NCBI GenBank assembly: GCA_030248215.1
Contig: JASANG010001546.1
Coordinates: forward strand, 496,001-560,000
Origin: Enoplolaimus lenunculus
Taxonomy: Eukaryota
DNA length: 64,000 nt
Direction of reading: 5' to 3'
The notes beneath the pieces are model-generated. The model was not told the DNA's origin. It saw nothing but the letters and a program-made list of their open reading frames with translations, and ran no database searches. Shown piece by piece: positions 15,946-50,600 of the stretch; the stretch's first letter is position 1; each line of letters starts with the position of its first letter. The position numbers were made by a program, and so were the translations under genes.

Positions 15946-16027
15946 ATACTGGCTTGGCTGTGTTCGAGAAAACTGTAACTTACACAATAATTATTTGTCT
16001 TCATCTTATTTGCAAATTGTAAATTAA

Positions 16028-20369: not shown

Positions 20370-20631
20370 CCCTTTCTCACATGAATATTTTCTATTTCCC
20401 CTGAGACCTACTCTTATGCTAGGATTCGAACTCCAGTGACTGGAGTGGGAGGCGTACACCGTCACCACTCAGCTATAGGAGCTTGACGCTCGAGCCCGAG
20501 GGGGCTCTCACGTTTTGTGATGATTTAGCACTATGTATCGTGTTGCAATTGTTAAACACGGTGCGATATATACTATTTAACGTATATACACTGCGCCGAG
20601 TTGCCTACAAGTAACTCAATGTGAGAAGGGG
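20370..20631 (-). mobile_element. piggyBac-like TTAA MITE with tRNA-like core, copy 2
   Basis: Near-identical inverted copy of 16028-16290, with TTAA at 20366-20369 and 20632-20635. Confidence 0.85.
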
Positions 20632-21832: not shown

Positions 21833-24800
21833 CTAGTGAATTGGCGGCTGAGGCGCGTTGGTGCTTTTTGTAGGCGGACGGCTCATTTTCTTGGGTTTGT
21901 TACAAAACGGTTCCGGTGGCGGCAGATCCCAAATGTCTACGAATCGGAAGCGCGATGCGAATTGGCTGTTGCTATTTTCTGCAATTAAAAATAAATAACA
22001 AACTCAATTTTATATTGGTATTGAATGATGATAACTACTAATTCACTAGCAGCATACTATGATATCAAATGATCGAAACACAAAGCCAAGGAAACTTACA
22101 CCAAACTAAGCACATGAATCATAACTCGCCATATACGGATATCGAAATCTAATCATTTCAATTTAAACAGTTTGAACAATTAAACAACAACCCCGATTAA
22201 TAGCACTTTCAAACTTTGTATTCCTGCAACAGAGTTTACTAACAACGCCCATTATCAAGCAGTGCCGGTGATAGCTCCCCTCATTTGGGTGGAGATCCTT
22301 GGCGAACACCTCATCTTAGCAAAGTATATATATTTTTCGATGAGCACACAGTTGTAGAGCCCTGAAACATTTTATTGAGGGGCCCCCCTCGGACCCGTTC
22401 GAGGCAGTCACGACGATCCTAACGCTTTCCCTGATGTCAAGTTTGAATTTGGCCAAAAATTATTCGCCACAAGTAGGAACGTGTATTCGCATGTTGTCCA
22501 CTATTTTAGCTTGCATGCTTAAAACATTCCAGATGCTCTAAATATAAACTTAAGTGTGTGTACACAGAGAAGGCTGTTGAACAAAAATATCAAACAAATT
22601 TTTGGAATTACGTTTTAAACTAAATCGGTGATTGTCAGTCGAATGTGATTGCCTTTGATGTGACGCCGCAGCTGTTGATGAGCCACGTGCAGGAGGCGGT
22701 GGCGGCCGTTGTTCGCCTGTGTCTGCAACAACCAAGTATACAAACGTATTTTATGCGTTTAACAACCATCCACAGCAAGGCCTCGTGGTCTGCATTGAAA
22801 TACAGTCTTGCTACCGTCAGAGACGCGAATACACGTAACCGCTACTGATATACTCGAATATGCCAACAATCGATTCACAACTACTACTGTATAAATAAGC
22901 AACTTAAGTTCGTCTTCCTAGTTCCACCATAGAGCTAAATGTTGCTATAAAATTCGACGCTCATCATGCCGGTAGGCCATGCCCAACGAAACTTGCCAAA
23001 CGTCCCATACAGATTAGACTTGCCTGGGGACAGGATTTGGCCGGTGACGGCTCCGGTACCTACATACATGGGACCAATGAATAGTTCTGTAAGAACGTAA
23101 TCTTTTTCGTAGCCACTTATTGCTAAATTTAGTAGCGAAATATAAGGCAGAGTCGAAGTTCTTTTCACAGCAATATATACTTTGACTTAAAAAACTAAAA
23201 TACATGTTTTACAAACGTTTTTTCAATTGTTTTGTGTGACCGAAACGCAAAGAGGCTTATTCAGCTTATCGAGGCGCAACGAATCAGCTAAAAAATGGCA
23301 TTGGTCACGTTTAGGTCCAAGCTAATAAAGATGCGCTCCTGCACCATCTAATACAGGATATATTACGAATACAGGATATATTACGCACACTTTATGTATA
23401 CATCAATTGTTTTCAAAACTTCATTGTACAGCGGGTCAACGTTTCATCAAATCAAAATTTGTTCAATTCTAACTTGACGGGTTCAATTATTAATTCCAAA
23501 GAGGCGTCGCGTACATAAATTTCGTAACAACAGCGCCAGGTTAAATACCACTACTTTAATAAAACACACCTCTCTTGCTTTACCTATATAGTAGCTTTTT
23601 AAGAGAGAAACAGTAATTGTTTAGGTTCTGCTAGAAAACAAATATACGTATATGCATATGAAATTTTGCTAACATCTAACTTTAACGCCTTCCGCCTGGC
23701 TGACTCAAATATAAACAATGTTTCTAATGTAGAAGCTATAAACCACTCTGCATATTTACGTACCATTTGCGTAGCCAGGATTTTAGAAACAAAAAGGGGA
23801 GTCACATTCTTCCAAAATTTACAAGTCGGTATGTTGTGATGCAAACTGAAAATGCGTCTACAAACTTACTTATGGTACAAAAATCGCAAAACGAGGATTG
23901 CGTTGACACCTAATCGGCCTTTGCTAAGCTACATACATACTTACTCGAATATGGCAACATTTGATGATGATACTGTGGGTCGTTTCGGGATACGCCATGG
24001 TTAATGGGTGCCGTCCCTGCTCTTGGCCTTCCACCACCTGCAGTCGACGCAGCCCCGCCGGCAAGTGGCGGTGGTGGCGGCGGCGGTCCTGACGGCTTCT
24101 GTAACGGCGGTCGCCGTGAATTGATTGTATGTTGTTGTTGTTGCGACAAATAATTATTATTATTATTATTATTATTATTGCTATTACTGTGATGATTATT
24201 TAACATCGTGTTGGCGGTGTTTGTTTGATATTGATGAGTTGGAATATTAGGAGGCACTGTTGGATCACGTGGCGGAGGTGGCGGCGGTCCGTTGTTATGT
24301 TGATGTTGATGTATCGTTGACCCGATTCCTGTACCGCCGGCACCATATTGATCGTTAATGTTCTGAACATACAATACAATTAAAATAATAATGAATATTC
24401 ACGCACGTAACTAATGCTTTAATTAGCCAAAACTGCGCTTACATTTATGCGCAATGATGTTTCACAGGTCGCAACCGCAAATGCGATTAAGATTACGATA
24501 AGTAAGATGCAAACTGCGGAGTCTTGCAGTACGTATGCATTAATGTTGACTAGATCTCTGTGTCAAAACTAACGTCACCCATTGACGGCGAAGCTTTTAA
24601 AACAATTCCTACTACGTATATATTCTATACACTTAGCTGAATGTCCAGTTTCAAATGTAGAATCAGAAAATTTTTTAAATATTCCAAATATATAAACACA
24701 ATTACTACATTTTCGCTCCTAAAAAACAAATCGTCAAATAGCAACCTACATAAATAAATCTGAAATACAACCAGCAAAACCTAAACGCAAAACACGATAA

Positions 24801-27800
24801 ATAAAAATCTGGTTAAAATTTGAAAACATACCAACGTGTTATATACTTTGGGTATATTACGTAATTAAGCCCGCGGGAAGTTAAAACGTACGCATTGTTT
24901 GTTACGCACGTATAACAAAGCTTATTTCGGTTGTGCAATTTGCGTTCCAAAACGTATACGTACACATGCGATAAGGGTGCAACCGAAATGTCAATTGAAC
25001 GGCTTCATATAAGCAATCAACGTGACGTCACGCTATTCAACAGTTTTGTAATTTGACGTCACATTGCGCGTAATATTGATATTTTATTTCGATAACAGTG
25101 ATTTTAAGCGCTCCGGTTCCTGTTCCGGTACAAAATTCAGCTTTACCCTGCCCAGCCTGTGACCGCAGAAATCAATAGTGCGCAGAAAATGGTCAAGCAG
25201 CATAGATATATACATAAATAAATAAATAAATAAAGGAACAAACAAATATGTCCGATTATCACTGATTTAACACTTCGATTAAAACAAGACAACATAATAT
25301 GTCCTTCCTTACACAACTCAAACAAAACTAAGATATATTTGTAACGTCAAAAACAAATTTTAACAACACTCACTTTACGCACTCAAAAATAAGAGTTGTA
25401 CGCAGTTGGTACTTAATAAATACCTACATATTCACGTACTGCGTATATCTCACCAGGAAGGCATATAATCTCCCAAGTGTTATGAGAATTTTTGTGCTCC
25501 ACGAGCAATTTCGTACCTCAAGGATCCAACAGGTTACTTTAAAGCAAAAACTACATTCACTGTCCAATTTCTTTGGGAATTCTAGAAAGCAACAAATCCC
25601 TCATACCCTAGTATATACGTGTACACCTATGTATACCTCATGTTAGTATGTACTAAGTGTCTCAAAGTATATAATAACTTACATATAACGACAACCGAAT
25701 ACGTAGGTATAACAAACACACCGGTTTAAGATTGTTGTAGTTGTACGTATATGTTAAAATGGTGATGTTTTCACACAAAACAAACTTACGTACATTTTGC
25801 GTTTTTTTTATTTATCGTCCAAGTTTCGACGGTATTAACAACGCTAAAGTGGTCGCGCAGCTGTTGTTACATTAAATATATTTACATTGAAAGCCTAAAA
25901 TAGCCATACTATTGCATTAGAGATGCCCCGAGGCCAACACGTTATTACAGATTTGCCATGGTTTTAACCGAGGTCAATTTTTATACTATGTCCTAGAGGC
26001 CAATCTGCTATTCAGGCCAATTACTAATCAGCCCAGGCCAATCTGCTATTTTCTGTAACCGCAATTTTGTCGAGGCTAAACTGCTAAGTATTAAACTCAT
26101 AGACCAATCAGATTTCATTATTTCGACAGACGCAATACCGATAACCGATCAGCGTTGGCTTTACATCACTGTTGTTTTGTTACATCTTACAATCGCTATT
26201 TGCCCAGAAATGCAGATTGGCTTAATTACATACATATATCGCAGGTGATGCTTTTAGGTATCTTTACGTGTTCTAAACTGGCTCCGGATGGTTTCCCGCC
26301 CGGCGGCCTTGGCCCCCGTTTCGAGACAAGTCTATTATGCATATATTTAAAATTATACGCAAATAGTTTTGCAAGTACGACTACAGCTGTATCAGAAATT
26401 AACCACAACGTTCTGCAACGTTTTAATTAAAACAACAGACGATGCCTACCTATGTATACATCAGAGTTCCAACAGGAACTAACTTTTGCCGGAACAGAAA
26501 CAGGAACCGGAATTTGAAATAATTTTCATCACCGAATTGCTGTTGGACTTTTTAGAAAACTTGTCACAATTGGGTTAATCGAATTTTCAACTATACACTT
26601 CAACATCAAGCTTTGTGAAAAGGAAAACAAATGAAAACAAATTAGAAACTGTTTACTAACAAACCTGAAGCAATGGCAAACGCAGTCATTTCGAAATAAC
26701 AATTTTTCAAAGGCAAAGTTTCCCATACTCCAATGATTAGCAATAATTTGCCACAAAACCGTAAAAATTCCTGTTCCTGCATCTTTGGATCAAGGAACAG
26801 GAGTTAAATTTTGCAGGAATTCCGGCCGGAACAGGAAATCCGATTGAACCCTGGTATATATGTCGCAGGCCAATTACCAATTGGCCTAGGCCAATCTGCT
26901 ATTTTATGTAATAGCAGTTTGACCTAGGCTACACTGCTATTGAACTTATAGACCAATCAGATTTCATTATTAGGAAAGACGTAATATCGTTAACCAATCA
27001 TTGTTGTTTTGCTGCATCTCACAATCGCTATTTGACCGAGGCCAAACTGCTATTTGCTTAAAATAGCAGATTGGCCTAGGTCAATAGGTAATTGACCAGA
27101 ATAGCTGATTGGCCTACGACATATATATGTAGCCTTCAGGTCACCGTGCCGAGCGGCGAATTTCATTACATTTTAGATTCACATGGGAATACTTTAATCC
27201 AACTTGATTCCACAGTTTTTATTTTAAAACTTTGAAGCGTTATTATCACTTTGTTTTTGTTTTTAAATGGCTGACTATGATTGATTAATAAAATAGCCGG
27301 CAAACAATATGTACATACTGTCTGCACAGAACAAATTAACGGCGTTGAATTTCGAAATATAACAAAGTAAGTTTGGATATGGTGTGCGATGAATAGCAAA
27401 TAAATGGATGATTGTAAAAAGAAGAAGAATAAAGGGTTAAAAAATGTAAACAAAAAATTTGTAAAGTAAAATTATTTACGGCACCGCGAGTCTCACAAAA
27501 ACTGATTTTGTTTAACGCGGCACGTGGCCGGGTACGGCGAGTATATACGTATAGCACAACCTTAAATGGCGTTAATAAAATTCACTCAAGCAGCCAACCG
27601 TATACATACTAACTAATACGAATTTTGTGCCACATAATACATACCAAAACAAACACCAGCACCAAAATAACACGTCACGATATCGAACTGAACAATGAAG
27701 CAAACTGGTTTATAAACAACTGGTGAATAAGCGTATATATACGTATATTAAATTCAAAATAACTCAACTGAAACAAGCTACATGCACACTGCGCACATAT

Positions 27801-30800
27801 TCGATTCATGAAAACTTGCCTGGTTGTGTTGTTTAGTAGGTATATTTAGCACAATACCTTGAATATTAAACGCCAAGGAATATGTACGTACATACGAACG
27901 TAAATAAGCTAAACGTCACATGTTCTGCGTATGTATAAAATGCTTATACAAAAAATAAGCATGAAAATAAATAAAACCCACACATCATAAGCATATGTTT
28001 GGTTCAATAGCTAGCATTCATGATGTTAAGCGTAACTGGATTAAAACGGAATCGGAACAGCAAATTGGTATTGTAATCGGAACTACAAACTTTGTTACTA
28101 TAAGGATAATTTGTGCCCACAATAATATAGCTATAATATTGATTTAGGTGTATGTTGCAGGGTGGCAACAAAGGTTCGGATTCGTATTCGGATTCGGCAA
28201 AAACTTGTAGTTCGGATTCGGATTCGGTTGTAAAAAAACCGAATCCGAAATCCTAATCCAACAGTGTTGTTCGGCAATATGTTATTACAGTTATAATCAA
28301 CAAAAAATTTGATATCTTGTTATATTAGTAAAAAAATTTTGTTTCAGGTCACAAATCTCAAAACTGAGGTCGGTCACGAAATTGAAACGTTTAAAAGTTA
28401 TGTGGCTGGCAATGCGTTGATATTCTGAAACAAATTATAGATATAACTGAAACTGGCAACGTGCAAGATTGGTGCCACCCTGGTCTGTCTGCTTGTAAAA
28501 ATCTTCAAAAACGTCAAATGAACAAACTGGTGATAATTTTTAGTTCTGTTAAGCTGAACTACAATTACTTGTTAATATTTTAAAACTAAACTGTAGTTTT
28601 GTGTGTTTAGATGTTGAAATGGACAGAAATTTTATGTATTATATCAGAACAAGAAGGATTAAACTGATTCCGATTCAGTGTGCAAAATTCGTCTATGTAT
28701 ATAGCGCTAATTCTGTATATAAATAAAAGCAGTGGAAGTGGCACTAATTCTTTCTGAGGTCTGGATTCGATTTAACATGGTATCAAGAGCGAGACGTCGT
28801 ACAAAAGCAAGCCAGTAGTATTTACACAAGATGAGCAACTAAGACTACCTTTCTCATCCCTGTAACCTGCTTAAATTTTCCGTGAATTAAATTACAAAAT
28901 TTACCTTAAACTTCATTTTACTGACCTGTTGACTAGAAGACGAATGATCACTGCTCGAACTTGTACGATGATTATATTTACTGCTGCTCGTGTCGTTGTT
29001 TTGCATAGTGACATGGGAATGCAATGATAATGGCTGATCTGCCAAATTGTTCAAATTTGACCGCTGCTGTAATGTTCCAATGTCCGGCTTTGCTGAGCAT
29101 GCTTTATCGGGCAACGGGGGCCGGGGACGATGTTTTTGATGTTGTTCGGATGGCAACACGGGTTTGTGCACGCTGGACTGAGCTTTTAAAGGACTGCCTG
29201 AGCCTGGCGAATTCGGGTACAACCCTGATGGTTTAATCGATTGATGTGGAGGTGCCGGTGCGTGATGTGATTTAGTTGGTGGGATACGCGGTGATGAACC
29301 CTGTTGTGGTTGTTGTTTATGACGGCTTTGACTAGGTACTGTTATAGTAGGCGGTGACGCAAATCCGCTGCCACTTCCAGGATTCATGGCTGTCAGTGAA
29401 CCAGATCGATCTTTTTTCTCGAACAATTTGAGCGAGTCCATCACGCTGGCACCTACGCCACCGGACCCAGCTACACAAATGTTATCAGACGAACCACCAG
29501 CATTATTACTGCGATCGTTTGTTGTAGATCCTCCTCCAATCGCAAACGCTGCGTTTCCGCCACGTAAACCTGAACCTACCCCGTATTTTGAGGGACCATT
29601 TGGCACACTGGACGATGAGTAATCGATATTTTGATGATCAGCATTGCTACCGATGTTAACAAGCGACGATGCCGAATTCGATGACTGTAGTAAGCGATCA
29701 GGCTTTTGAGCAAGCGGTGGTTTCGGTCCTAATCCAGCCAACTGAGCGTTAATACCTGTTACAGTTTCTCGTGCACCAGAGCCAATTGCGGCAGTATGAT
29801 TTGAGCGTCCAATCGTTGTCGCGTTACTGCCAGATACTGATGTTCCGTACCGATTTGTAGTAAACGATGGCTCAGATACTTTCCGCATATGATCAGGCGG
29901 TGACGGTGAATGTTTTGGACTTGACACGCCCTCTGAAGAAAAAAGTATGTGTATGTATATTAAAACTGAAAACAAATGGCCTTATTTCAGATTCAGGTGT
30001 TGCAAAGCGTAACCAGGCTTTTGGAGTGCTCTTTGCTCTAAAGCATACAATTGTGATAAGTTGGGTAGGCTAGGGTACGACAGTTTTTAGTTCTGAGTTC
30101 TCAACAGTTGACAATGAGGGACGCTCCCAGGAGGTTTCGAACTCGGTTGACAGATTATCAGTCCAGCGCGCTATCCACTGAGCCACGTCGCCTCACATTC
30201 GACTGCTGAGTTTTTCTGTTTTTATGTCTTATAAGAACCTCAACATTATACACATAACACACGTATCTTGGTTCTTCAATGTTTTACCGCTTCTGCATAT
30301 GAAGGCACTACATATGCATCAACGTTTTACCGATGTGCAGCATTAGCATTAGGTTTCATTTTGCCTCCATACATCCGCATGTCACAACAATCAGCGATTT
30401 GGGGCTTTTGTTGTGAAAGAAAGGACGTAAGAGTAATATGTACGTTGTCAGCCTACACTGGAACCAAGGCCATCTGACCTTTCTACCAAGCAGCTGGAAA
30501 AGCGGGCTAGAGCGGTGATCGAACTCTCAGCCTATGGATCCTTAAGCGAGCACTCTACCACTGCGCCACGTAGCCCGTCTCTCCAACTGCATTTTTCGTC
30601 GACTATATGTGTTGACTGTACAACACAATGTGCATTGCATTTATTGCATATGCACCAGGACAAACATGTCTCACATGCTTACATGCCCTTATTTTCAACA
30701 AGGTCGTTCCTTGACCGTCCATCCTATTTTCGACTGGATACCGTGTTCATAGCGCGACAATTTACCATTGCGTCCTCGGAGTAGCCCCATGTCAGCCTAG

Positions 30801-32099
30801 GTAGGAACCAAGGACATCAGACCTTTCTACCAAGCAGTTGGAAAAGTGGGCTAGAGCGGGGATCGAACTCGCAGCCTATGGATCCTTAAGCGAGCACTCT
30901 ACCACTGCGCCACGTAGTCCGCCTCTCCAACTGCATTTTTCGTCGACTATATGTGTTGACCGTACAACACAATGTGCATTGCATTATATTGCATATGCAC
31001 CAGGACAAGTATGTCTCACATACTTACATGCCCTTATTTTCAACAAGGTCGTCCCTTGACCGTCCATCCTATTTTCGACTGGATCCGTGTTCATAGCGCG
31101 GCAGTTTACCATTGCGCTCACGGCGTAGCCCCCATGTCAGTCTAGGTAGGAACCGGGACATCAGATCTTTCAACTAAAGCAGCTGGAAAAGCGGGGATCG
31201 AACTCTCAGCCTATGGATCCTTAAGCGAGCACTCTACCACTGCTCCACGTAGCCTGCCTCTACAACTGCATTTTTCGTCGACTATATGTGTTGACCGTAC
31301 AACACAATGTGCATTGCATTTATTGCATGTGCACTAGGACAAGCATGTCTCACATGCTTACAAGGAAAGTCGCAGCTTTTATATAAGTACCTGTTCGTTT
31401 CTTGATTGCCGCACTCAGCTGCGACTGTAAGTCGTTTGAGCAAGGAGTTGCAACGCTACAGCTGGTATTACGTGGAGTTAAAGCGGAAGGCGATGCATTT
31501 GACGAGTTTCCTGCACGTCCAGCGTTTCCTATAACAGCGTACAGCACAGATGTTTAATTAAGTATTTATATAAATGGCAACTTTTCGAGCTGTTGTCAGA
31601 TATTCATTGCTGAAAGGCTCGACATAACTTTTTTCGCAGTGACTTTTGTTCAGAATAGAAGTAAGAATAGTAAGAAACACAGCTGATATTAAAACACCTT
31701 TTCAGCAACTGCCAGAGCCTGATGATGAAGTGTCCATCTTCGGATTTAGTATTTTTATATCCGGTCGCAACCTGTTGTTTGCAATTGAAAACAACAAAAT
31801 AGTTAAACTTAATTCCCTGATGCATTTTTAAGTTCCTAACGGTTTGTGTGATCAGAAATATACTAATATCCAGACAAAAAACACAAAATCACACCTTTAG
31901 AATCAATGAAAGGTCCGCTGCGATCATTTGTTATCGTTTTCTTCAGTTTTGTACCTTTATGAATGTCAGATAATAACGCAGCTCTGTTTGTGCCACCGCC
32001 TGATATTCCTGACTTTGCTTTTCCAGCAAGTGAAGGCGGCGGTGGTGGTGGACCAGGAGCGCCCGGAGGGGGTATCGGAGCAGGTGGTGGTGGTGGCAT
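21833..32099 (-). CDS. WIPF: WASP-interacting protein (WIP/verprolin family)
   Basis: In-phase exons 32099-31895, 31528-31391, 29932-28926, 24362-23945, 22722-22612, 21978-21833. N-terminal polyproline and WH2 domain (RAALLSDIHKGTKLKKTITNDRSGP), Pro-rich middle, and C-terminal WASP-binding motif FASRFRFVDIWDLPPPEPF. Confidence 0.9.
26857..27125. mobile_element. MITE with long imperfect TIRs in TA context
   Basis: ATATGTCGCAGGCCAAT ... ATTGGCCTACGACATAT. A related partial copy lies at ~25995-26245. Confidence 0.6.
28158..28482. mobile_element. hAT-like MITE (CAGGGTGGCA ends) nested in an older MITE
   Basis: CAGGGTGGCAAC...GGTGCCACCCTG. Same family as 44585-44957, in the opposite orientation. 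Confidence 0.65.
30052..30386 (-). mobile_element. Solo LTR of tRNA-bearing TRIM family B, copy 1
   Basis: TGTGA...TCACA inverted termini with a perfect 5-bp TSD ACAAT (30047-30051, 30387-30391). Minus-strand tRNA-like core at 30192-~30119 (box A TGGCTCAGTGG, loop CTGATAA, box B GAGTTCGAAAC). Confidence 0.85.
30446..31362 (-). mobile_element. Tandem-array TRIM family A: LTR-I-LTR-I-LTR with a tRNA-like sequence in each LTR
   Basis: LTRs at 31362-31135, 31028-30790 and 30683-30446 (sense TGTAAG...CTGACA). The 106-bp internals start with PBS-like TGGGG(G)CTAC and end with purine-rich GAAAATAAGGGCA. No TSD is visible. Confidence 0.85.
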
Positions 32100-32919
32100 G
32101 CTAATGTAGCACGTTGACTATTGCAAGTACAACCAAGATTTCAAGTTTCTGTTAAATTCAGGGAATGCGGTGACTGCTTAAAATTAAGTAGCTAAGAATC
32201 CAGATTACTAGTAAATGTTGCAAATGAGCACGATAGAGCTGCTACTGTAAAACATAATACAATTAAGCCAAACAAAACATGTACTAGGTTAATTAAAGCT
32301 GCCTAGACATTAACACAAACCGGTATGCTGATCCATACCACATTTCTGTTGGATCTACTCTTATGTAAGTTTGTATATCAAAAACACAGACCGCACCATG
32401 GCCTAGAAAACGGACAGAGCATATAGAAAATTAGTTGTGCTGAGCTTCGGGAAGAAGCACCTAAAAGAACTATGAAATCTCGAGATATTGGTAACAAAAT
32501 TTGCATTGTAAAGTTTGATTTTAACCCTAAAAAAGTTTACACTCGGCAGCCGGTGGGGGCATGAATACCCCCATTTCCTCAGGATCCGCGCTTGTTAAGA
32601 TACGTCTCTGCAACCCAACCTTTGTGTCAAATGAATTGTATGTTTAAAATTTTAGGCATTTAGGAATGGAAATTATCAGGTGAGTTGACCTAAAAATACT
32701 TGAACCTTGCCAGTTATAGTTTTCCTTTTTGCGTTCCGCAATTGCAAAATTTTATCAGTATGAAATGTTATCATTAACTGGTGATGAGTGCTATACACAT
32801 TTGAAAACATATGCCTGGATCTCAAATAAAAAAATTTTGAAAAATGTAGCAAGCGTCATTTTTAGTCAGTGGATCCAAATTTACAAATTATAAATACATA
32901 GTATATATTTATGTGATAT

Positions 32920-33550
32920 TGGATATTCTCCCGTATGGTCTCCTTATTTGCTGAGAGACATTGATCAGGTCGAGAAAATTCAACGGTTTTTTACTAGACG
33001 CCTAGTCGGTAAATTCAAGTTGCCAGCAATGAATTATCTGGCCAGACTACAGCACTTTGGTCTTCAGTCCTTAGAACAACGTAGATTGATACAGGACATG
33101 GTATTGTTTTATAAAATATATCACGGTGATTGTGGTTTAGATCGTAATGATTTTGTTGTATCTACAACTGAGAACCGTACGAGAGGTCATGATTCCCGAG
33201 TTGTCATCAATCATTGTCACACGGATTCTCTTAAAAATAGCTTTTTCCATCGTGTTAAACCTATTTGGAATGATTTGCCGCAACATGTTAATTCAGTTCC
33301 TCTTATCCATGCTATGAAAGATAAATCATTTTGCAATACATTAAAACGGGTAGATTTCTCTAGGTATTTAAATGCGATCGTAACCTTGATTAAGATAGGT
33401 GAAAATTACGGTTTACCCCCTTTTCATCTGATTATTGTTTGTTACGGAATTGAGTTTCCTTTATTTCATACCTTTATAATGCTTTAAATTTTTCCCTGTT
33501 CAAATAATCATTTCCGCAATAAACTTTTAGTTTGTTTGTTTGTTTGTTTG
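32920..33550 (+). mobile_element. 5'-truncated CR1/L2-group LINE 3' end
   Basis: ORF2 C-terminus SPVWSPYLLRDIDQVEKIQRFFTR..YLARL..LQSLEQRRL..DM..FYKI..RTRGH..FF.RV..WNDLP, followed by AATAAA and a (TTTG)n tail at ~33530-33550. Confidence 0.85.
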
Positions 33551-33754: not shown

Positions 33755-34067
33755 TGTGATAAGTTGGGTAGGTTAGGATACGACGGTTTTTAGTTCTGAG
33801 TTCTCAGCAGCTGAAAATGAGGGACGCTCCCAGGAGGTTTCGAATTCGGTCGACAAATTATCAGTCCAACGCACTATCCACTGAGCCACGCCGCCTCACA
33901 ATCAACAGCTGAGTTTTTATGCCTTACGAGAACCTCAACACATGCATATGGTTCTTCAATGTTTTTATCGCTTCTGCATATGAAGGCATTACATATGCAT
34001 TAACGTTTTACCGATGTGCCTCATTAGCATGAGGTTTCATTTTGCCTCCATGCATCTTCATGTGACA
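33755..34067 (-). mobile_element. Solo LTR of tRNA-bearing TRIM family B, copy 2
   Basis: Aligns end to end with 30052-30386. TG...CA ends, flanks ACAGG/ACAGT (4/5 TSD match), tRNA-like core at 33895-~33822. Confidence 0.8.
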
Positions 34068-34180
34068 ACAGTTGGTTTCCGTAGACTAGACTCATGGTGC
34101 CTGTCGGTATATGTGCACGTAAGTGTATGTAAAGCAAATGTTGCCATGCCTGTGCACATATACCGGTATAATGTTGCAAC

Positions 34181-34252
34181 GACCGCGTAGTGTAGTGGTA
34201 TCATGCTTGGCTCGAGAGCAAGAGGGCCGAGGTTCGATTCCCGGCGTGGTCA
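34181..34252 (+). pseudogene. 72-nt tRNA-like sequence in LTR1 (anticodon position CGA, short variable loop)
   Basis: GACCGCG TA GTGT AGTGGTA TCAT G CTTGG CTCGAGA GCAAG AGGGC CGAGG TTCGATT CCCGG CGTGGTC A. The acceptor stem pairs fully; the T and anticodon stems have mismatches. Confidence 0.75.
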
Positions 34253-34485
34253 TTAACTTTGGCAAAACTTCAAACAGGGGTCGTGCAGACCGTATAGTAC
34301 CAACATGGAGGTCCCACCGAGACGGGCACTGCAAACAGCAAGCCCATGAAATCGGGTAGTTGGATTCACGGTCCGGGACGACCGCCTGTAAAAAAGAGGG
34401 ATGTCGGTATATGTGCACGTAAGTGTATGTAAAGCAAATGTTGCCATGCCTGTGCACATATACCGGTATAAGAAGTTGTTGCAAC

Positions 34486-34557
34486 GACCGCGTGGTGTAG
34501 TGGTTGCATGCTTGGCTCGAGCGCAAGAGGGCCGAGGTTCGATTCCCGGCGTGGTCA
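34486..34557 (+). pseudogene. 72-nt tRNA-like sequence in LTR2
   Basis: Second copy of 34181-34252 with a fully paired D stem (GTGT/GCAT). Confidence 0.75.
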
Positions 34558-35700
34558 TTAACTCTGGGCAGAACTTCAAACAGGGGTCGTCTAGACCGTA
34601 TAGTACCAACAGTGCCAAATTAATATACGCTATAAGCAAAACTTATTTTTTTATTATGACAATGGCTCACGTTTGGCGTTTGTCTGTTTTTTCCAAATTT
34701 AAGTATTTACTCAAGTCGGTGACTGAAGTAAATTAAGTATACCTTAAGTGAACAATTAAGAAAGATTGCAGAAACCCAGCCAAGTAGCTGTAAAATCGGG
34801 TTACAGGTGGTCGTCATCTCTATAGTCACCTGTTACTGATTGGTTTTCAATCAAGCGAACAGTAGCAGCGTCAAATGTCGAAACCTGCATTGAAACGAAG
34901 CAGATCAAGTACGTAATGACCGCCGTTACAATGCGATGGTGTTGGTTAACTTACCAATTTTGTTAATCATATGACATTAGGTTTATCCTATCCACAACGT
35001 CTGTCAAGTTGCATTTGCAGTTATCTTTTGAAAGCTGATGCGTAAACTTTTTCAACCCAATATTTCTTTCTGTAAGTCATTTTACCGCTCAAGACACGTA
35101 CACGTTAACAAAAACAAACTTACGAAACATCGCTTTTAAAGAAATATATTCCTCACTATGTCATGTTTTTTCGGTACGTAATAAATACGTCAGTGAGAGT
35201 GATGTTATCATAAATTGAAGTAATTTTGAAAACAGCAACCTTGGTGCAAAATTTAGCCAAGATTGGGCGTTTAAGGCAAATTTTGCCGGTTTAAACACGA
35301 AACGAATGTTGTATTATTTAGCTGAAAATCTTGTTTTGCCGTATAAACAATTTAATGATTGCTACATGCAAATGGAATGAAGGCAAAGGAGACAATATTT
35401 TCCACCTTGAAGATAATGAAATGTTTCGATTCCCGCATATTTTATAATTCTGTGTTGATATCTGGCTTTTCATAATGCGTACATTTTTCATGGAATTGTT
35501 CTGTGTACAAAGTTCACATAGCCTCTGAGTTATTTATATATACGTACCTTTTCAGCACTGCCACATATTTATTCTGCCTTATTTTTTACATTAATTAAAT
35601 CTATTAATTAAATAGGTTCTGAATTGCAATTATATTTGGATTTATTGCTTGCGATCATATATAGTAACTGCTGCAATTTTTGCTAAGCAAATTTTCGGAG

Positions 35701-35730: not shown

Positions 35731-36416
35731 GTAAGTTGATTTGTTGTGGATATTTTGCAATGGTTTTCGTTTTTAAATTGTATATATAGTCGTCAGGCAG
35801 GGTAGCAGTAAAAGTTTCAGTTCAGGTTTAGATGCTGCGAAAATTCAAGGTGCTCATTCGGGTAGAAAAAGCCTAATGCAGCAAGAATCGGTGACTTACC
35901 TGTTTACCATTTTTCGATATATACGTTTATTATTTGTAGTTGTGCACCTCGATTCATATTTCACTGGTTCGATTTTTTATTATTCCGTTGCTCTGTAAGA
36001 TTCGGATTGCTAGTTGCGAAAGTGCTTTATTTCGAAAGAAATGAAAATTCCAAGCCAACAGTTACCACGGTTCTACCGACCGAATTTCCGTTCCACCCCG
36101 GAATTCCTGCAAAAATTCAGTTTCTGTTCCTGATCCGGCATTGAAAGACGCAGGAACTGGAATTTTTACGGTTTCGGGGCAAATTCCGCAGAGTTAACTT
36201 GAAAATAAAAAATTGACGTCTCAAAAACTTATCACAGCACCTCTGATAAATTTAATTTCACTATGTATGTTTGGTTTTTCAGTTACATAATACGTAATTA
36301 TTAGCAGATATTTTCATAAAGCGCGGAGAACTATGAAAAACGTAAAATACTGCTGAAAGCCTAGTATATATCTTAATAATTTATTTTGAAAATTTTGAAT
36401 TTTTTTCGTTGATGAC

Positions 36417-36806
36417 CAGGGTGCAACCGGAATTCCGGTTCCGGCATTTTTTCACCTTCCGGTTCCGGTAAATTTTTACCGGATTTAAAAATTCCGGTAT
36501 TATAATTTGGCCGTTTTCTTAACTTTGCTAATTTAATAAGAATCTCTTTTGAAAGCCACTTGTACTCCGAATATAAGCCATTGATGGTGGATTTCACTTC
36601 AGTCGATGATGAAAATCTAAAATACAACAAATAAAATAAATATATACCTATATTCGACTAAGGTTATTTCACAAATAATAGAGCAAGAAATAAGATTAAA
36701 ATGAAATTTTTGATGATATGCATTTTTCACTTTCCGGTTCCGGTTCCGGTAAAATTTTCAAATTCCGGTTCCGGTTCCGGTAAATTGTAATTCCGGTTGC
36801 ACCCTG
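36417..36806. mobile_element. hAT-like MITE, 8-bp TSD TTGATGAC
   Basis: CAGGGTGCAACCGGAATT...AATTCCGGTTGCACCCTG with a perfect TSD at 36409-36416 and 36807-36814. Confidence 0.9.
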
Positions 36807-38927
36807 TTGATGACCAAAAATTGACCGAGACCGAGACGTTATGACCGGTGTCGGTCTCAGTGTCGCTTTTGAACTGAGAATACACACGCCTGGCCAGTAG
36901 TCTAGGATTCAGGAAATGTGTTGCTTTGGTTTCAATCAGAATTCCTGCAAGAATTCAATTCCTGTTCTGTTCCTGCATTTAACGACACAGGAACCAATAT
37001 TTTTTACTGTTTTGTAGCAAACTACTCATAATCATTTATATACTGGAAATTTTTTCTTTGAAAATTTGTTATTTCGAAATGATTATGTTTCCATTAGTTC
37101 AGTTTTGTTAAACGATTTCTGCTGCGTTTTCGCAAAGTTGGATGATGAAATCGCTGAAAATTCGCTTAAGCAATTTTTTTATGTTTCATAGTTATGCAAT
37201 AATTATCAGCAGATGTTCTGAAAAACGCAAAAATAACTATGAAAAACTCACGAAAAAAGCTTAAAAATAATTTATTTTGAAAAGCTTTTTTTCTGTGATG
37301 ACCAAAAATGGAGCAAGACCGCAAAAAAGTCGACGAGCTAATTTTATTTTAAATTATAGTCAATTAACAGTAAGTACGTAGATGGTGCAATATATTTGCA
37401 ATTCCTGTTCCTGTTCCGGTATATTCCTGTTTTTGCTTCCTGTCAAATGTGGTTCGAGTTAAAAGCCGGACGTATATATAATATATTTGAGTTCGAAATT
37501 TTTGAAAAATGGAAAATGGCTTACATAAATTTTGCTCTGATGTTGCTATTTTCACGCTAGTGCTCTATACAATGTTGCAAGTAGCACTTATAAGCTATAT
37601 ACGTACATGTACGTTTGTATATAATACGTGTTAAATCGGCTTATGTGTTCTGCTGGCTAAGATAGCAGCCAGGACTGCCATTTTACAAAGGTCGTTGGTA
37701 ATTATTAATATGAATTATGATTGATTTTGATTTTCAGGCCCATATGTTAAGTTGCAGTGTTATCATTAATTTTACGTACTACGTATATTAAGGTACTTGT
37801 AGCGAACTACCGATTTGGATCTCTTGTTTTGTTATATATTTGTTTAATTGGTTTGCATTATTCTTTTGTTATTAAGATAGGCTGTAGCATAGCGTCTTTT
37901 ATTAACGGATGCATCCATGTTATACTACGTATTCATTTCAGCCTGTGCCACGTTGCAAAGCGGAAATGGATTATATCGGAATCGGAACGGCAAATTTATA
38001 TCGGAATTGTTAGCAGAACTACAATTTGTGTGGCTATACGGATAATTTGTAATAACAAATATAATATTGATTTATGGTGCGCGTTGACTAACAGAAATTT
38101 CAAAAACGTCGCATAAACAAATTCGAGATGATTTTTGGTGCTATAAAATACATCGCAATGAATCTTACAGAAAAAAGATGCAGAAGTTTTATGCAACATA
38201 TCAAAGGAAGTAGGATTAAAAATTAAATTTCGAAATTCCAATTTCGATTGACTGAGTAATAGAAATCGAAACTCGTGTTGAATCGGAATTCTAATCGCAA
38301 TCAAAATTTCGGTTGCACCACGTTTTCAGCGATAAATATCTGGTAACTGATCCAGTACATGGAATCCGATCGCACTCAGTAATTCTAATGTTGACCGTGG
38401 TGATGTGAATTTGGAATCTTGAACATTAATTCAACTTGTATTGTCTTCAATCGGCTGTACATAAACGTTATTGTAACACTTCGATAATTAATATATACGC
38501 AAATGTTTCGTTTGTATATGGTTTATATTAAGTAAATTGCATAGGTTGTCATTTGCCCAAATCCAATGAATATGTAGGTGCACTCGTACCCTTACGATGA
38601 ATGTAGTTCTGTTTACATTGTTTTTTGAGTAGTTTTTTATTATTATCACCTTGGTTGTTGTTGCTACAAATAATCCACACAGGTTCTCGAGTCTTGCATT
38701 GTGTATAATTTTATGTATTGTGCCGGTTTTGTTTGTTGTATGTTGAAACCGAATCCATTATTCGAGTTTGGAGCATCTTTTATTGGTCGTTACGTACCTG
38801 GAGCGGCTTCTTGACTAATGTTTGAAGATTGTGTTATATGGAATGTTTTGTTTTGTTTTTTATTTTATTTTATTACGGTTTTTGTTGTTGTTTTTTGTGA
38901 TGGTGTTTAGTTTTAGTGTGTGTACTG

Positions 38928-39369
38928 CAGGGTGCAACCGGAAGTCTGATTTTGATTAGAATTCCGATTCAAAACGAGTTCCTATTCCGATTAGAATATC
39001 GAGTCAAAGCGAATTCCGATTCCGATCGCACAATCAGCTCGAATTGGAATTTTGAAATTTTAATTTTAATCTTACTTTTTTGTGGTACGTTGCATAAAAA
39101 TTCTGTATTGTTTATCTCGTTCCATGAGTTGATTTATCAATAATATATTTTAGTTTAGCTTTGCAGGACCAAAAATCGCCAATCTGTTCATGCGACGTTG
39201 TTAGACAATTGTTGCCACCCAACAGATACTCTAAATCAGCGTCATATTTTTCAATGCAAATTATACGTATAGGCACAAAATTTCCTAGTTCCGATTTCGA
39301 TTACAATTCCGGTATAAATTTGCTGTTCCGATTCCGATTTGCTACAATCCAGTTCCGCTTTGCACTCTG
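38928..39369. mobile_element. hAT-like MITE (CAGGGTGCAA family)
   Basis: CAGGGTGCAAC...TTTGCACTCTG with flanks GTGTACTG/GTGTACGT. Related partial copies at ~5340-5618, ~37945-38320 and ~39590-39925. Confidence 0.75.
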
Positions 39370-40406
39370 GTGTACGTACTGTGTGCTTAATATGGAATCC
39401 TAGGTGTTGAAACAAGATTGATTTTCTAGGGCGGGCGTAGCCAACATTTTGCAAACGGGGGTGTCGTCTTGTAAAAATTTTGAAAAGTTTCTTGTACTGC
39501 CACCTGAAAAATTCCTAAGACTGATGGGATGGGCGTAGTGTCGTGCGCAGTTCGATCCATCAGTTTCAGACTAAAAGAATTTTGTCGGAATGCGGATTGA
39601 TTAAACGTAACTTTTGAAACAATCAGGAATTGAAACTACAAATTTTACGACTATACGGATAATTTAGATAAACAAGTTAATATTGATTATGGGTGTCTGT
39701 TGGCTGGCAACAATTCTCAAAAACATCGCATTTGGCTCTGTAAAACTAAACTACAATCAATTATTGATAGTTAAGTCATCGAAAACAATTTAATACATAA
39801 ATCATATAGATTTCTTAAACAACATAACAACAAGTTGGCCTAAAATTAAAATATTGAAATTCCGATTGATTGTGCAATCGAAATCGGGATTTAATTTGGA
39901 ATCGGAATTCCGATTGCATTCTGGTGCACGGTCTTTATTTTGCTTACCTGGCAGTGTAAGTTGGCTTAACTTAGTATTGATAGTTATTTTGTTTGCTTTC
40001 GCTCAGGAAGGTAAATATATCACACTGATTATTTGGAAGAATTAGGTCGCTTTTGAATAGAGTGTATATATTTGATAATTCGAAATAAAAATAAACTAAA
40101 TATATGATATATAATCTATATTATGTAAGTATATATAGCGCTTATATATCGTGAAAATGTTTGTGTGTTGCTAAATTGTATTCATGATTGTTGACAGAAA
40201 GTGTAGTTTCACCGAATGCCTGAGCTTTGAACTGAAACGTAATTGATCTTTCCGCCTGTGTTATGACAACTTAAAAGAGGTGACAATGAAGTAGTGTGAG
40301 AGGCAACAACACTGTTTGACGTTGAAATGAACCGTTATTTATTATTTATTTAGTATATTTCGTAAGTTGAATATCTGAGTGTATACGGAACTCCAGTTCC
40401 GGTTAG

Positions 40407-40877
40407 CAGGGTGCAAAGCGGAACTGATTTATACCGCAATCGCAATCGGAACAGCAAATTTGTATCGGAATTGGAACAGCAATTTATATGGGAATCGGAA
40501 CAGCAAATTTATACCGGAATCGGAATCGGAACAGCAAATTTGTTCCGGAATCGGAACTACAAATTTTGTAACCATACGGCTAATTTGTTTTAACAAGTAT
40601 AATATTGATTCAGAGTGTCTGTTCGCTGGCAATAATTCTCAAAAACGTCACATGAACAAATTGTCAATCGTTTCTTGGCCCTGTAAAGCTAAACTACAAT
40701 CAATTATTGATAAGCTAACTTATCGAAAACAATTTAATAGATAAATGATGCAGAATTTTTATACAACATATCATAATAACAAGTAAGCCTAAAATTAAAA
40801 TGTGGAAATTCCGATTCCGGTTGATTGTGCAATCGGAATCGGAATTTGTTTTGAATCGGAATTCCAATTGCACCCTA
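40407..40877. mobile_element. hAT-like MITE, 8-bp TSD CCGGTTAG
   Basis: CAGGGTGCAA...TTGCACCCTA with a perfect TSD at 40399-40406 and 40878-40885, and internal GGAATC repeats. Confidence 0.85.
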
Positions 40878-41497
40878 CCGGTTAGTATTCTAATTTAAAA
40901 TATGTCTTGAATCTGATATACGTACGTAATGTAGATTTGTTTTTGCACCCTGCCTGGTATGATTTAATATGAAAATAATCAAAATAGGCCCGGATTGTGT
41001 TCACCCAAAATGTCATACGCACAAGACAGATGCATATTCTACGTATAGATTTACTAAAACGTACTTGAGAAGATAAAATGCCATCTTAAGTTGACAGTCG
41101 AACTTAAAACTCTTACAGTAGTAAACTGTCTCATGATCGTCTGTTTGAAAATTTAACTGCAGTGCGTTTTTGTGAGCAAAAATTAAAATTTTGTTATTTA
41201 TTGCGACCCAGGCGAATGTGGATCCGAGGGGTGGCGGCGACTTAGGCAGACCGCGTTCCCACCGATCCGAAATCAAAACCGTAATTACGGTTTAGGGTTT
41301 GGTACTAAAATTGTGTTTGGATTTATGCTGGTTTGCTTGAAACCTTTAGCGCCACCGCCCTCGCTCAAGAATTTCTGGGTCCGTCACTGGATGCAGGACT
41401 AATCTGTTCAGTGTCCATTGGCTTTGTTGTTGGGATTATATATGTATGTCGTAGATGTATATATATTTTATATATCTTACGTTATGTAAATGCTTGT

Positions 41498-41582
41498 GTT
41501 GTTGTTGTTTTTGTTGTTGTTGTTGTTGTTGTTGTTGTTTTTGTTGTTGTTGTTGTTGTTGTTGTTGTTTTTGTTGTTGTTT

Positions 41583-41638
<56 letters not shown>

Positions 41639-41648
41639 GCTGCTGCTG
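41498..41648. repeat. (GTT)n microsatellite, ~150 bp, with interruptions
   Basis: Directly visible. Confidence 0.95.
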
Positions 41649-44584: not shown

Positions 44585-44957
44585 CAGGGTGGCATCGAAT
44601 CCACGATTTGACCGAATCCGAATCCAAATCCAGTGCTAATTTGCCGAATCCGAATCCTGCATGTTGCAAATTTCAGATATATCTATAATTTGTTTCAGAA
44701 TATCAACGCAATGCCAGCCGTATAACTTTTAATACGTTAATATATTTCGTCCCGATGTCAGTTCTGTGATTTCTCACCTGAAATAAAAAATATTGATTTT
44801 TTATAGCAAGGTATTTAAAAATTTTATTGCTTAAAAATTAAAAACATTGCCGAACTTTGTTAGATTCGGCTTTTGGATTCGGCTTTTCCACAACCGGATC
44901 CGAATCCGAGCCTCAAATTTTTGTCCAATCCGAATCCGAACCCTTGTTGCCACCCTG
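44585..44957. mobile_element. hAT-like MITE, 8-bp TSD TATCAGAG, inserted in the terminus of another MITE (to ~45392)
   Basis: CAGGGTGGCA...TGCCACCCTG with a perfect TSD at 44577-44584 and 44958-44965. Confidence 0.85.
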
Positions 44958-45945
44958 TATCAGAGTGCAACCGGAATTCGGCTTCCGGCATTTTTTGACT
45001 TCGGTTCCGGTTGCGGTGAATTTTTACTGGAAAAGAAAGTTGCGGTATTAAATTTTGGTCGGTGGAAATTAAAAGATATATATTTTACTAAAAAATGACG
45101 ATAAAAATTAATAAGATTTCATTTGTATACGTAGTATATAAACTTTGGCCATCGCCGAAAATAAACCGTCGAAGGTAGATTTCGCTTCCGTGGCTTGTCA
45201 AAATTTAGAATACAGCAGATAAAGTGAATATCTATCTCCAACTAAGGGTTATTTCACCAATAATATTGCAAAAAAAAAGAAAATTGAAATAAATTTTTTG
45301 GTGGCATGTACGCATTTTCAATTTTCCAGTTCCGTTTCCGGTAATTTTTTCAAATTCCGGTTCCGACAAATTGTAATTCTGATTGCGCCCTGAATTATAT
45401 ATATTATACGTTACGTACTATTGTACGTTAAAATATATATTATGTGTACGTATTAAATAATTAATTAAAAAGCAGTTTGCACGAATTGATTGCAATGGAT
45501 GGATGAATGGATTAGCTACAGTATTTTATAAAGTTGTTTGGTGTTTTTAAGGATTTGTCAGTGTTGAAAGTTTTTGGTTTTTATATGTTTTTAGTGTAAG
45601 TACGTAGCTTATTATTTTAAATTGCAATGAGTTGAAAAATAGCGTTTCGCAGTTATTAATTGAACACAGCGTAGTTGAAACCAGAGTTGAATGTCGACGT
45701 TAATGAACCGGACGGATTTCAGTTGAGAAAAATTCGTTTAAAAGCTACTTATATACGTATTTGATTGTGTTTAGCCGTTTTTTTCAATCTGACCGCAAGC
45801 CGTGATTTGTGTTTGTAATAGACAGGGTATAGCCGAAAATGCCATGGTGAATATATGAGAAATTTTCGAGCTTTTATTGAACCAAACACGCAGGGATTTG
45901 GATAATGATTTTAAATTAACTACGATTTTTGTACATGAAACACGT

Positions 45946-46077: not shown

Positions 46078-46281
46078 GTGCGCATGTAAAGATCAGGGGC
46101 GGAGCGTTTTTCTGTGAGACTAGAAAAGAGTAAGCTTAAGCTGTAGACTAATTTTTTTGCTTGGCTTAGGCTTAGGAATATGCTCATTCTTACGCTTAGG
46201 CTTAGGCTTAGGCTTACGCTTAGACGTAGGCTTAAGAATATGCTTATAATACTGGTCCGCCCCTGTTCTTTACATTGGCCC
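46078..46281. mobile_element. GGGCC-ended MITE with 6-bp TSD and TTAGGC arrays, copy 2
   Basis: ATGTAAAGATCAGGGGCGGA / TCCGCCCCTGTTCTTTACATTGGCCC inverted ends, with TSD GAGTAT at 46072-46077 and 46282-46287. Confidence 0.75.
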
Positions 46282-47681: not shown

Positions 47682-50600
47682 GTATCTGCGTTACAGTCAC
47701 GTCGTGAAGCGTTTTTCAAAGAACAACCAGTTCCGCCGACAATGCCTTCGTCAAATGGCGCTTTGATGGGTGCCGCCGCCGCGTCGTCTCATGTCGGTTC
47801 CGGTGGAAAGACAGCACCGTTGGCCAATGGAGAATCGATGAATATTAGAGACCATAGTAGGTTGAAGTGTTGTGTTGTAGATGCAAGCTTGAGCGTATTT
47901 GCCAAAATTTTGAAGCGACTTTGTTCATTTGAGTGGTTTTTGGAAAAAAAGTCGGCGAAATGAAACTTCAGCCTAATTCACCTAATGTATCACAGGTGAT
48001 GGCTGTGTGAAATGTATATCGCAGTGAAGGGTTTCTAATCATCTGTATATTACAGGTAAAAAACTAAATTAGAAATCACCCTCTATTGATTGTTGTAGGG
48101 GGTGTCAGCAGGGTGCAAAGCGGAACTAGATTATACCGGAATCGGAAATAGAAATTTTGTGACTACACGGAGAATTTGCATTGGCAAGTATAATGTTGAT
48201 TTAGGGTGTCGGTTGGCTGGCAACAATTTGCAAACAGGTTGCATGAACAAGTCGGCGGTGATTTTTGTGTCTGCAGAGCTAAATTACAATTTATTATTGA
48301 TAAGTTAACGCATAGAAAGTAATAAAATAGATAAATGATACAGAATTCTTATGCAACATATCGCAACAAATAGAATTAAAATTAAAATTTCAAAATTCCG
48401 ATTTCAACTGATTGTGCAATCGGAATCCGAATCGGAACTCGTTTTGAATCGGAATTTTAATAGAAATCGGAATTCCGGTTGTTCCTTGGATGTCAGTTCC
48501 TGGTGGTTAATAAATGTGTGTATCAAGTGATGTTTCCGCGCCTGTAGCCAGACGAGTGCCAGTGGTGCTTTAATCCCCCTGAATACTTTTTCACCCTTGT
48601 AGGAAAGTTTTAAATTTGCTGGTAAATCATCGAAAATCCTTGTATGCCCCTCTTGAAAATTTTCCACCCCTTCTAAGCAAGGAAAGCTGTCTACGAGCTT
48701 GAATATTTTCTTGGGTTGGATGTATATGTAAACAATAATAACCTCACAATTAGGCGAGTCGTATACAAACGTACTTCCTCAGTTTTACTCTTCAAAGAAA
48801 CGACTACAATTCAATTTGAGAGTTGTTGCGTCTGGTGTCAATGCTACCGTTTACACGCTGTCTGCAACCGCTATAATGGGTTTAGGTTTAGGCTACACTG
48901 CGATACGAGTATTGTGGGTCTTACGCTGTGGTACGTATGCAATTTGAAATTTGTGGGCCAGCAGGAATAAAAAACTGTAGGATCCTTATATGAGGGGTAT
49001 ACATTCTCGAAATGAAATCGTCGTTACACCCCTGTACTTATTATATTATAATTTGGTACAGACAAACTTCAGCATAAGTATATATGTGTAGTGTTGTGGT
49101 CATGTCAGTATCCATCGGTCATTCATTTATTGATCTCATACGCACTAATGGGAGCCGTATATACTTGAATATCCAAACGCTACGGAGGTTATGCGTCAGT
49201 GGTAATTAATAGTCGGGTAAGAACGCCAAGTTGTCGCGGGTGGATGGATTGCTGGCTAACGCTGGTGCTGTCCTATGACGGACGATGTTTTTAGATAAAA
49301 AAGTGTTGCTTACAAATTGTTATTCGGTGTCATGCGAAAATAACCCGTGTGTAAAATTTGTTAAAAGAATAGCGCCGTTGAAGGAAGCTGAACAGTGGGT
49401 ACAATATTATGCTTAGAGATTGCGGTAACATAGAGTTAAAGGCACTACCGAAGCCAAATATTTTTGACACTGGGTCTGAACTGGGATTAGATTTAAAATG
49501 TGTATATTATATACGTATTAGAGTTTTATTGTATTTGGCTGTATATAAATAACGAACGTCGTTTTTATTAAGCCAGTTGCCATAAAATCATTTTGCCTGA
49601 ATAGTGTTTACGTAACGGTTTGAAAATGATAATTGTTCAATTTCGACGTTACTTTGAAGGCAGGAAGTAGTAAATTTTTGCTTGCTGGCTGGCTCACGTG
49701 TCCGGTCAATCAGGTTGAGTGTGTTTGACTATTTGCAGTAGTTGCAGTATTTATTGATATCCTGCTGTGAGAGAGGTCAAGCGTAATAGCAAGCTATACG
49801 TTTTAATATATTGTATAATAAGCTGTAAGCTGCAAGGCATATTATATGTAGCATAAAGCTGGGTCACACTGGATATATACAGATATATGCCAGTAAGGGA
49901 TAATGGATCGTATGTATGTATGCTTTCAAAGCAAGCTTATTATGCGGTAAATATGTATTTATGAGGGGGTGTTCAGTGTTTGAAGATTGCCGAATGATCA
50001 TAAGGCTGGTTTCGATATGGATCTGCTCAATGTAGAGGTGTCCATCCAAATATTTACGCCAAGGCCCGTTTAGGAATTAAATAAAAAAGTTGAACCTGTT
50101 TTTCAACCAGTGTAGGTTATATATTGTGTCCAAACCTGAAGCTCCGTAACACATATACTTAGGATTAAGTGTGGGACAACCTGATTTATGTCTAAGTTTA
50201 ATAGACGTTTTCGTTAAGCCTAAATTTTAAATGTGTGGGACAGTGTACAAGAGCCGTTGTAATTCAGTATATACGTAATTTGTTTATCTAAGCCTTTCCG
50301 TAAAAGTGGGTTTAAAGCTAAGCTTAAATGTTGACCTTAAATTACGAAGGGGGGGGGTTTAACAGCCTTTGAAAACCTAATCATTTGAGTAAAGTTTCAA
50401 GCCTTTGTAATTCATCAGTTCTATTGTACACACAGGGTCATCCAATCATATGGCGAACGGTCATCATGCGACCACTGCCGGCACAGCAATCGCTGCTGAA
50501 TCGAATGGTATCTCGTCGACAACGTCTTCAACACATCATTCAGGATTCGGTGGTGGAAAATCGCAATTGCAATCATCCGCTGCTACACCACCGCAAACAT

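Follow-up and report, generated by a model that had tools for sequence, protein, structure and literature searches.

A mini-LTR retrotransposon with a tRNA-like segment in both LTRs and a tRNA-Gln primer-binding site from a likely nematode genome

Helenus (TRIMp3) is the class of TRIMs that carry tRNA-derived sequence in their LTRs (Kojima 2024, PMC10886601). Its animal members range from 311 to 1263 bp in size and show a link to Gypsy elements, solo LTRs and three-LTR arrays are typical of the class, and Pol III transcription has not been validated for any Helenus (PMC10886601). According to Table S1 of that work, the TSD is 4 bp long in every animal Helenus row that has a value (two rows have none), and 5-bp TSDs are listed there for fungal and plant Helenus and for the animal Ajax elements; the available part of PMC12440569 gives 4–6 bp as the general range. 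For the Cassandra elements of plants, both read-through transcripts and three-LTR arrays are reported in the available parts of PMC10886601 and PMC7215508. Here we describe an element from a 64,000-nt stretch of DNA (hereafter, the window), which is very probably a non-coding mini-LTR retrotransposon of the Helenus (TRIMp3) class, likely transcribed by Pol III and primed by host tRNA-Gln, and likely dependent on the enzymes of an autonomous LTR retrotransposon for its copying and insertion.

Anatomy of the element, its tRNA-like segments and its primer-binding site

The element proper occupies positions 34102–34611 of the plus strand (510 bp without the TSDs) and bears a tRNA-like segment in each LTR. 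An earlier sequence-only reading of this locus had claimed a perfect GTGCC TSD, and flank comparison bears this out: the two copies lie at 34097–34101 and 34612–34616, with 5 nt being the sole matching flank length among those from 3 to 8. The evidence for this TSD length comes from one copy of the element's own family (family A) and one perfect copy of a sister family (family B). The 5' LTR (34102–34305, 204 nt) was delimited by LTR alignment and by the exits of other copies described below, and the 3' LTR (34402–34611, 210 nt) by other copies that start at 34402 and stop at 34611. Both have TG..CA ends; the inverted LTR ends that had been proposed match over 7 of 8 nt, so the inversion is not perfect. 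The interior (34306–34401, 96 nt) is non-coding and is repeated in the DNA sequencing runs. As claimed, a 17-nt primer-binding site (PBS, 34306–34322) abuts LTR1 and a 12-nt polypurine tract (PPT, 34390–34401) abuts LTR2, in an interior that had been described as free of ORFs. No Pfam match above the cut-off was obtained with the three long stop-to-stop frames that cover the element. The description of the copy as intact needs a qualifier, since the LTRs are about 4% apart and differ by two further indels.

The U3 part of LTR1 contains an inverted repeat (34105–34165) with perfect 14-bp arms at 34105–34118 and 34152–34165, and the corresponding hairpin of LTR2 lies at 34405–34465. The longest inverted repeat found in 200 shuffles was 11 bp, and the fold has a z-score of -4.6, none of the 200 shuffles being as stable, which upholds the proposed hairpin. 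In the sister families B and C, the U3 hairpin arms are just 8–9 bp long, a length also reached by the family A shuffles. Matches to mir-297 were below threshold and mirror the hairpin, and were rejected.

The tRNA-like segments were recognised by Rfam and ARAGORN at 34181–34252 in LTR1 (box A 34188–34198, box B 34231–34241) and at 34486–34557 in LTR2 (box A 34493–34503, box B 34536–34546). Both match the Rfam tRNA model over its full length, with 50.7 bits for LTR1 and 45.3 bits for LTR2 against a gathering threshold of 29, and each LTR combines a perfect box B with a fully paired acceptor stem. Box A reads TAGTG/TGGTG with the TGG kept, compared with the TRGCY of most Helenus (PMC10886601). 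The same Rfam scans found no 5S rRNA match in the LTRs. Whole-length alignment yielded no clear candidate for the parent tRNA.

The segments carry a CGA anticodon on a body with a short variable loop, a mismatch in the anticodon stem and an extra base in the T stem. Serine tRNAs require a long variable arm, and the combination of the short variable loop, the mismatched anticodon stem and the extra T-stem base rules out a functional tRNA-Ser. A related possibility, that the tRNA-like RNA of the LTR serves as the element's own reverse transcriptase primer, could appeal to the full-length tRNA score and to the D-arm motif of the segment, which recurs in 13 viral tRNA genes, nine of them Gln (the others being two Gly, one Asp and one Pro). 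The 3' end of the segment, however, resembles neither the acceptor nor the anticodon arm of tRNA-Gln, and its predicted duplex with the PBS reaches -11.5 kcal/mol, against -36.8 to -38.9 kcal/mol for three tRNA-Gln ends; because its own tRNA-like end pairs so poorly with the PBS, the element is not self-primed. With these points, the idea that the segment acts as a self-primer or as a working tRNA-Ser is largely refuted and retains hardly any probability. The tRNA-like part likely serves as a promoter, being neither tRNA nor primer.

The PBS, which takes in the complement of the terminal CCA, had been read as the complement of the 3' end of tRNA-Gln, and this assignment held on tRNAs other than those of the host. 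A query made of PBS bases 4–17 followed by the T-loop motif, a design that forces a tRNA but not its anticodon, matched seven loci in viral contigs; all seven are tRNA genes, six being Gln and one lacking a definite call. A published 18-nt tRNA-Gln3 PBS, given in the available part of PMC1592299, is identical to that of the element at 17 of 18 nt. Judging from these matches and duplex energies, host tRNA-Gln likely primes the element.

It had also been pointed out that the sense strand of the element has no run of four T. This is true, but 59% of 1000 shuffles also lack T4, and we rejected the absence as an argument, it being at chance level while sister families carry T4 right behind the tRNA part. 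Specifically, T4 follows just after the tRNA part in all family C LTRs, in family B copy B1 and in an old relic of family A. The first run of at least four T downstream of the element is a T7 in the host flank (34646–34652), 466 nt past the tRNA start, which represents the predicted Pol III stop.

Family copies, sister families and the host

The family was followed in three DNA runs, all from a single organism and one study with two samples, with contigs placed at 85% likeness. The 2.8-kb region around the element was fitted by 1667, 3103 and 4692 contigs in the three runs. When contig depth was summed, the interior bin compared with the unique right flank gave 16,906/8.9, 33,653/41 and 40,612/19, so that the interior exceeds the unique flank by about 800–2,200 times in all three runs, a depth that does not equal copy number. 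In run X2, 40 contigs exit into mixed sequence behind 34305, and among the pieces listed some start at 34402 or stop at 34611 with unrelated flanks. Since these pieces share the same LTR borders but have different flanks, the boundaries are confirmed in other copies, as the sequence-only reading required. A single-GTGCC allele, the empty site that it had suggested looking for, was absent from the 15 joints listed of 122. The element is a member of a high-copy mobile family.

Contigs from the runs bridge the LTR-PBS-interior, interior-LTR and LTR2-flank junctions, the last being covered by a single X1 contig; X1 is possibly the run from which the window derives. These bridges bear on another explanation, namely, a tandem duplication of a SINE or tRNA gene, or a duplication made by the assembly, with a chance match of the 5-nt flanks. 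Such an origin would agree with the modest likeness of the repeats (93% over 210 columns) and with the frequency of a given 5-mer, which is expected by chance at about one in 1,600 positions here. Against it, besides the bridging contigs, stand the position of the tRNA part in the middle of the repeat without an A-tail, and the TG..CA ends, PBS and PPT exactly at the repeat borders. This joint anatomy refutes a duplication, to which we assign a negligible probability.

Loose contig ends at 34205–34253 and 34558 revealed another abundant repeat that has the tRNA-like core in common with the element and different sequence on both sides. Our reading is that it represents another LTR family or a SINE of the same genome.

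The window contains further LTRs of this type. A decayed LTR relic of family A was identified by alignment at 1333–1508 of the minus strand (68% identity). Two further families with tRNA-bearing LTRs, B and C, which are unrelated to the element, lie within 4.1 kb of it. Family B is represented by two solo LTRs on the minus strand: one at 33755–34067, 29 nt left of the element's TSD, with box A, a degenerate box B and flanks matching at 4 of 5 nt, and another at 30052–30386 with boxes A and B and a perfect 5-bp TSD. Family C forms a tandem array on the minus strand (30446–31362), located in an intron of a WIP-like gene and composed of three tRNA-bearing LTRs and two 106-nt interiors with a flush tRNA-Pro-like PBS and no TSD; a solo LTR of the same family, decayed at its 3' end, is found at 9134–9364 of the plus strand. 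Like those of family A, family B LTRs are present at high copy in the DNA runs. Families A, B and C show no mutual BLASTN similarity at E 0.05, and in all three of these families from one window boxes A and B are situated mid-LTR.

This arrangement argues against an ordinary Pol II TRIM, in which the promoter would lie in U3 and the tRNA-like piece would be a passenger, such as an ancient SINE or an inserted tRNA that ended up in both LTRs by copying. The deviation of box A from the usual Helenus motif agrees with a passenger, as does U3 (LTR nt 1–70), which is the same in both LTRs and has the strong hairpin. A passenger is harder to reconcile with a perfect box B and a fully paired acceptor stem in both LTRs, and repeated passengers are hard to credit in three families with unrelated LTRs, each with boxes A and B mid-LTR. 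We therefore consider a Pol II TRIM unlikely and retain the tRNA-like segment as the probable promoter.

The host is likely an early-branching nematode or a close relative, as suggested by the septin-7 gene of the window (50450–57700, plus strand, starting from about 50450). Three trees (FastTree support 1.0; ultrafast bootstrap 100; site-mixture model 100/100) each join its exons to those of nematodes, a placement that concerns one gene and a set without named Enoplea, horsehair worm, tardigrade or priapulid. The trees left rows out (46, 32 and 23 rows), near-duplicate insects and distant septins having been dropped. In the site-mixture tree the gene falls outside the sampled Chromadorea, and its grouping with the arthropod rows and two rows near them was rejected (p-AU 2.6e-5). 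A short GCTTAG array in the window (46159–46234) agrees with the telomere motif of nematodes. The WIP-like gene, which has a WH2 domain and occupies 21836–32099 on the minus strand, has its start codon at 32099, with the element 2.0 kb away on the upstream side; its ATG directly follows a TTAG acceptor-like site, and this would fit trans-splicing. The other genes identified are an EGF-repeat membrane protein gene (5910–8500, minus strand) and a Ras-family GTPase gene (10293–12280, plus strand).

Other repeats of the window include a 69-bp satellite in 13 copies (63033–63937), a 95-bp tandem repeat (15677–15943) and a TGT microsatellite (41497–41639). Short GGAATC/TTCCGG repeats abound in a dispersed family that has many copies in both orientations (5300–5620, 11397–11491, 28028–28577, 36100–40870, 44653–45392 and 48104–48488). 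A 270-bp element with terminal inverted repeats, TTAA-like ends and internal boxes A and B is found at 16025–16294 (plus strand), 20366–20635 and 60448–60717 (both minus strand), its three copies being 93–95% alike. We take it to be piggyBac-MITE-like, and it seems to be a DNA-transposon-like element with a tRNA-type promoter; a literature search for DNA transposons with such promoters returned nothing on point. Finally, a 197-aa frame located 600 nt left of the element (32894–33484, plus strand) has no Pfam match and, in our assumption, resembles a LINE reverse transcriptase at its C terminus.

Proposed transcription and mobilisation

Starting from the observed cis-acting parts and mobility, we infer the transcription and the helper as follows. 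Boxes A and B of LTR1 would start an RNA at about 34170–34181, which would cross LTR2 to the T7 at 34646. For the as yet unvalidated Pol III transcription of Helenus, this terminator-less copy predicts an RNA of about 470 nt that ends at 34646–34652. Because no T4 lies inside, the transcript would contain all of LTR2, and the LTR would be terminally redundant from the start site on; R would more probably be the whole LTR downstream of the start than the tRNA segment alone. A helper, most likely a Gypsy element, would then package the RNA, with the minus strand primed by tRNA-Gln and the plus strand by the PPT, and the 5-bp duplication would be left by the helper integrase.

A Gypsy element remains our best guess for the helper, one that we hold with somewhat better than even confidence, because animal Helenus PBSs are common to Gypsy families (PMC10886601) and a flush PBS, like that of family C, is present in the nematode Gypsy element Cer1. 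The guess is weakened by the 5-bp TSD, which departs from published animal Helenus and makes BEL or Copia possible. Nematodes frequently harbour BEL elements, whose TSDs are 5 bp long. In fungi, 5-bp TSDs are tied to Copia helpers (PMC10886601), and Fig. S2 of the same work includes a BEL element with a Helenus PBS type. On the question of the helper alone, with the element itself read in the same way, we regard BEL/Pao or Copia as a serious second choice, less probable than Gypsy. The sequence-only reading had asked for an autonomous element, and none emerged from the window, whose 134 frames of at least 72 aa (125 and 8 assessed by Pfam in two rounds, one by its septin core) gave no Pfam match to RT, integrase or gag. 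The helper search had 0 matches in viral contigs, and in a metagenome search the LTR-end/PBS motif was found at 38 loci, with no retroelement domain in the 36 of 66 frames scanned. These loci have only the PBS motif in common with the element, none of the 38 bears a tRNA, and 37 come from one assembly. In that unrelated assembly, ACA is followed many times by a flush Gln PBS, often of the full 18 nt, and then by unrelated or locally repeated sequence. The loci may be LTR-plus-PBS intermediates that became inserted, or may form a degenerate repeat family.

Comparison of the two LTRs shows 196 of 204 aligned bases to be identical (93.3% over 210 columns), with eight substitutions and with one 5-nt and one 1-nt insertion in LTR2 relative to LTR1. 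The first 70 nt of the LTRs are identical, and all eight substitutions and both indels fall at or beyond position 70, which is about where the predicted Pol III RNA would start. This clustering has P 0.02–0.03 if the eight are independent, but they include two adjacent pairs and the border was picked afterwards. One difference, A at 34265 versus G at 34571, is a family-wide variant, A making up 39–60% of run depth at 34571, so this difference need not be a post-insertion mutation. The three family C LTRs show 0.06–0.12 events per nt downstream versus 0.04–0.05 upstream, in pairs that are not independent. Such a pattern would be expected from a read-through RNA that undergoes early strand transfer together with intermolecular plus-strand transfer, but also from chance or gene conversion. 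With such a pattern of differences, the 4% LTR divergence is a poor clock.

These observations can be joined into a broader, decidedly tentative scenario. It posits that LTR parasites with tRNA promoters radiated independently in nematodes into three or more unrelated families within these 64 kb, with 5-bp integration and a Gln primer and hence a helper unlike those of all published animal Helenus. In this scenario, the identical U3 together with the diverged tRNA part and U5 would also be a footprint of Pol III reading through without a terminator, the whole LTR past the start acting as R and LTR differences being heritable through strand transfer. If true, DNA alone would suffice to locate the start site from the read-through footprint, and LTR-divergence dating would be unreliable for such elements.

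Comparison with known systems

The element likely adds a seventh animal phylum to the hosts of Helenus, and its 5-bp TSD breaks the rule of 4-bp duplications in animal Helenus. It bears on how frequently LTR parasites capture tRNA promoters and on the helpers they use. It also illustrates that repeats of this type are mistaken for tRNA genes (in this case, tRNA-Ser was called falsely twice), inflating tRNA counts in new genomes.

Similar to tRNA-derived SINEs, the element is short and non-coding and has an internal box A/B promoter, but SINEs lack LTRs, PBS and PPT, carry the tRNA part at their 5' end and are moved by LINE enzymes. With Ajax, the TRIMp3 of nemerteans (PMC10886601), it shares an animal host, TSDs of 5 bp and LTRs that contain a Pol III-type promoter; Ajax differs in having a 5S rRNA piece, absent from the element, and a Leu PBS. 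Cassandra likewise has a Pol III promoter inside each LTR, but is 5S-derived, has terminators in its LTRs, resides in plants and has experimentally shown transcription, as described in the available parts of PMC10886601 and PMC7215508. Cer1, a Gypsy element of C. elegans, is also a nematode LTR element whose PBS adjoins the 5' LTR, and its Pro PBS resembles that of family C; unlike our element, it is autonomous and coding and uses a Pro primer, and the available part of PMC3315495 reports no tRNA-like segment in its LTRs.

The closest likeness is to Helenus itself. The element is below 1 kb (510 bp), has no coding capacity, and carries tRNA sequence in both LTRs with boxes A and B kept; the PBS and PPT lie at the ends of the interior, the TSD is within 4–6 bp, the copies are multiple and interspersed, and the tRNA-like part is not complementary to the element's own PBS. 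As in Helenus, the anticodon and the body of the tRNA-like part disagree, and several families, solo LTRs and tandem arrays coexist in one genome. Its TSD is 5 bp rather than the 4 bp of published animal Helenus lineages, and for this reason we do not file the element under those lineages. It further differs in its 14-bp U3 hairpin, in lacking the T-run that follows the tRNA part in many Helenus consensus LTRs (PMC10886601), and in its Gln primer, which is missing from the primers listed for Helenus families, both the PBS motif and the word 'Gln' having 0 matches in the supplement of PMC10886601. Six motifs of the element's LTRs had no position-matched hit in that supplement, which sets the element apart at the level of motifs, not of alignments. 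Its host is probably a nematode, and Table 1 of PMC10886601 contains no nematode. No report of a nematode Helenus or tRNA-LTR TRIM was found in the literature searched (Repbase and subscription journals lay outside the search), and none appears in the available parts of PMC12859917, PMC13570524 and bioRxiv 2025.09.22.674508. The Helenus class itself is not new, and the element is of this already published kind; it represents a new family, marked by a 5-bp TSD and a Gln primer, in what is probably a new host phylum.
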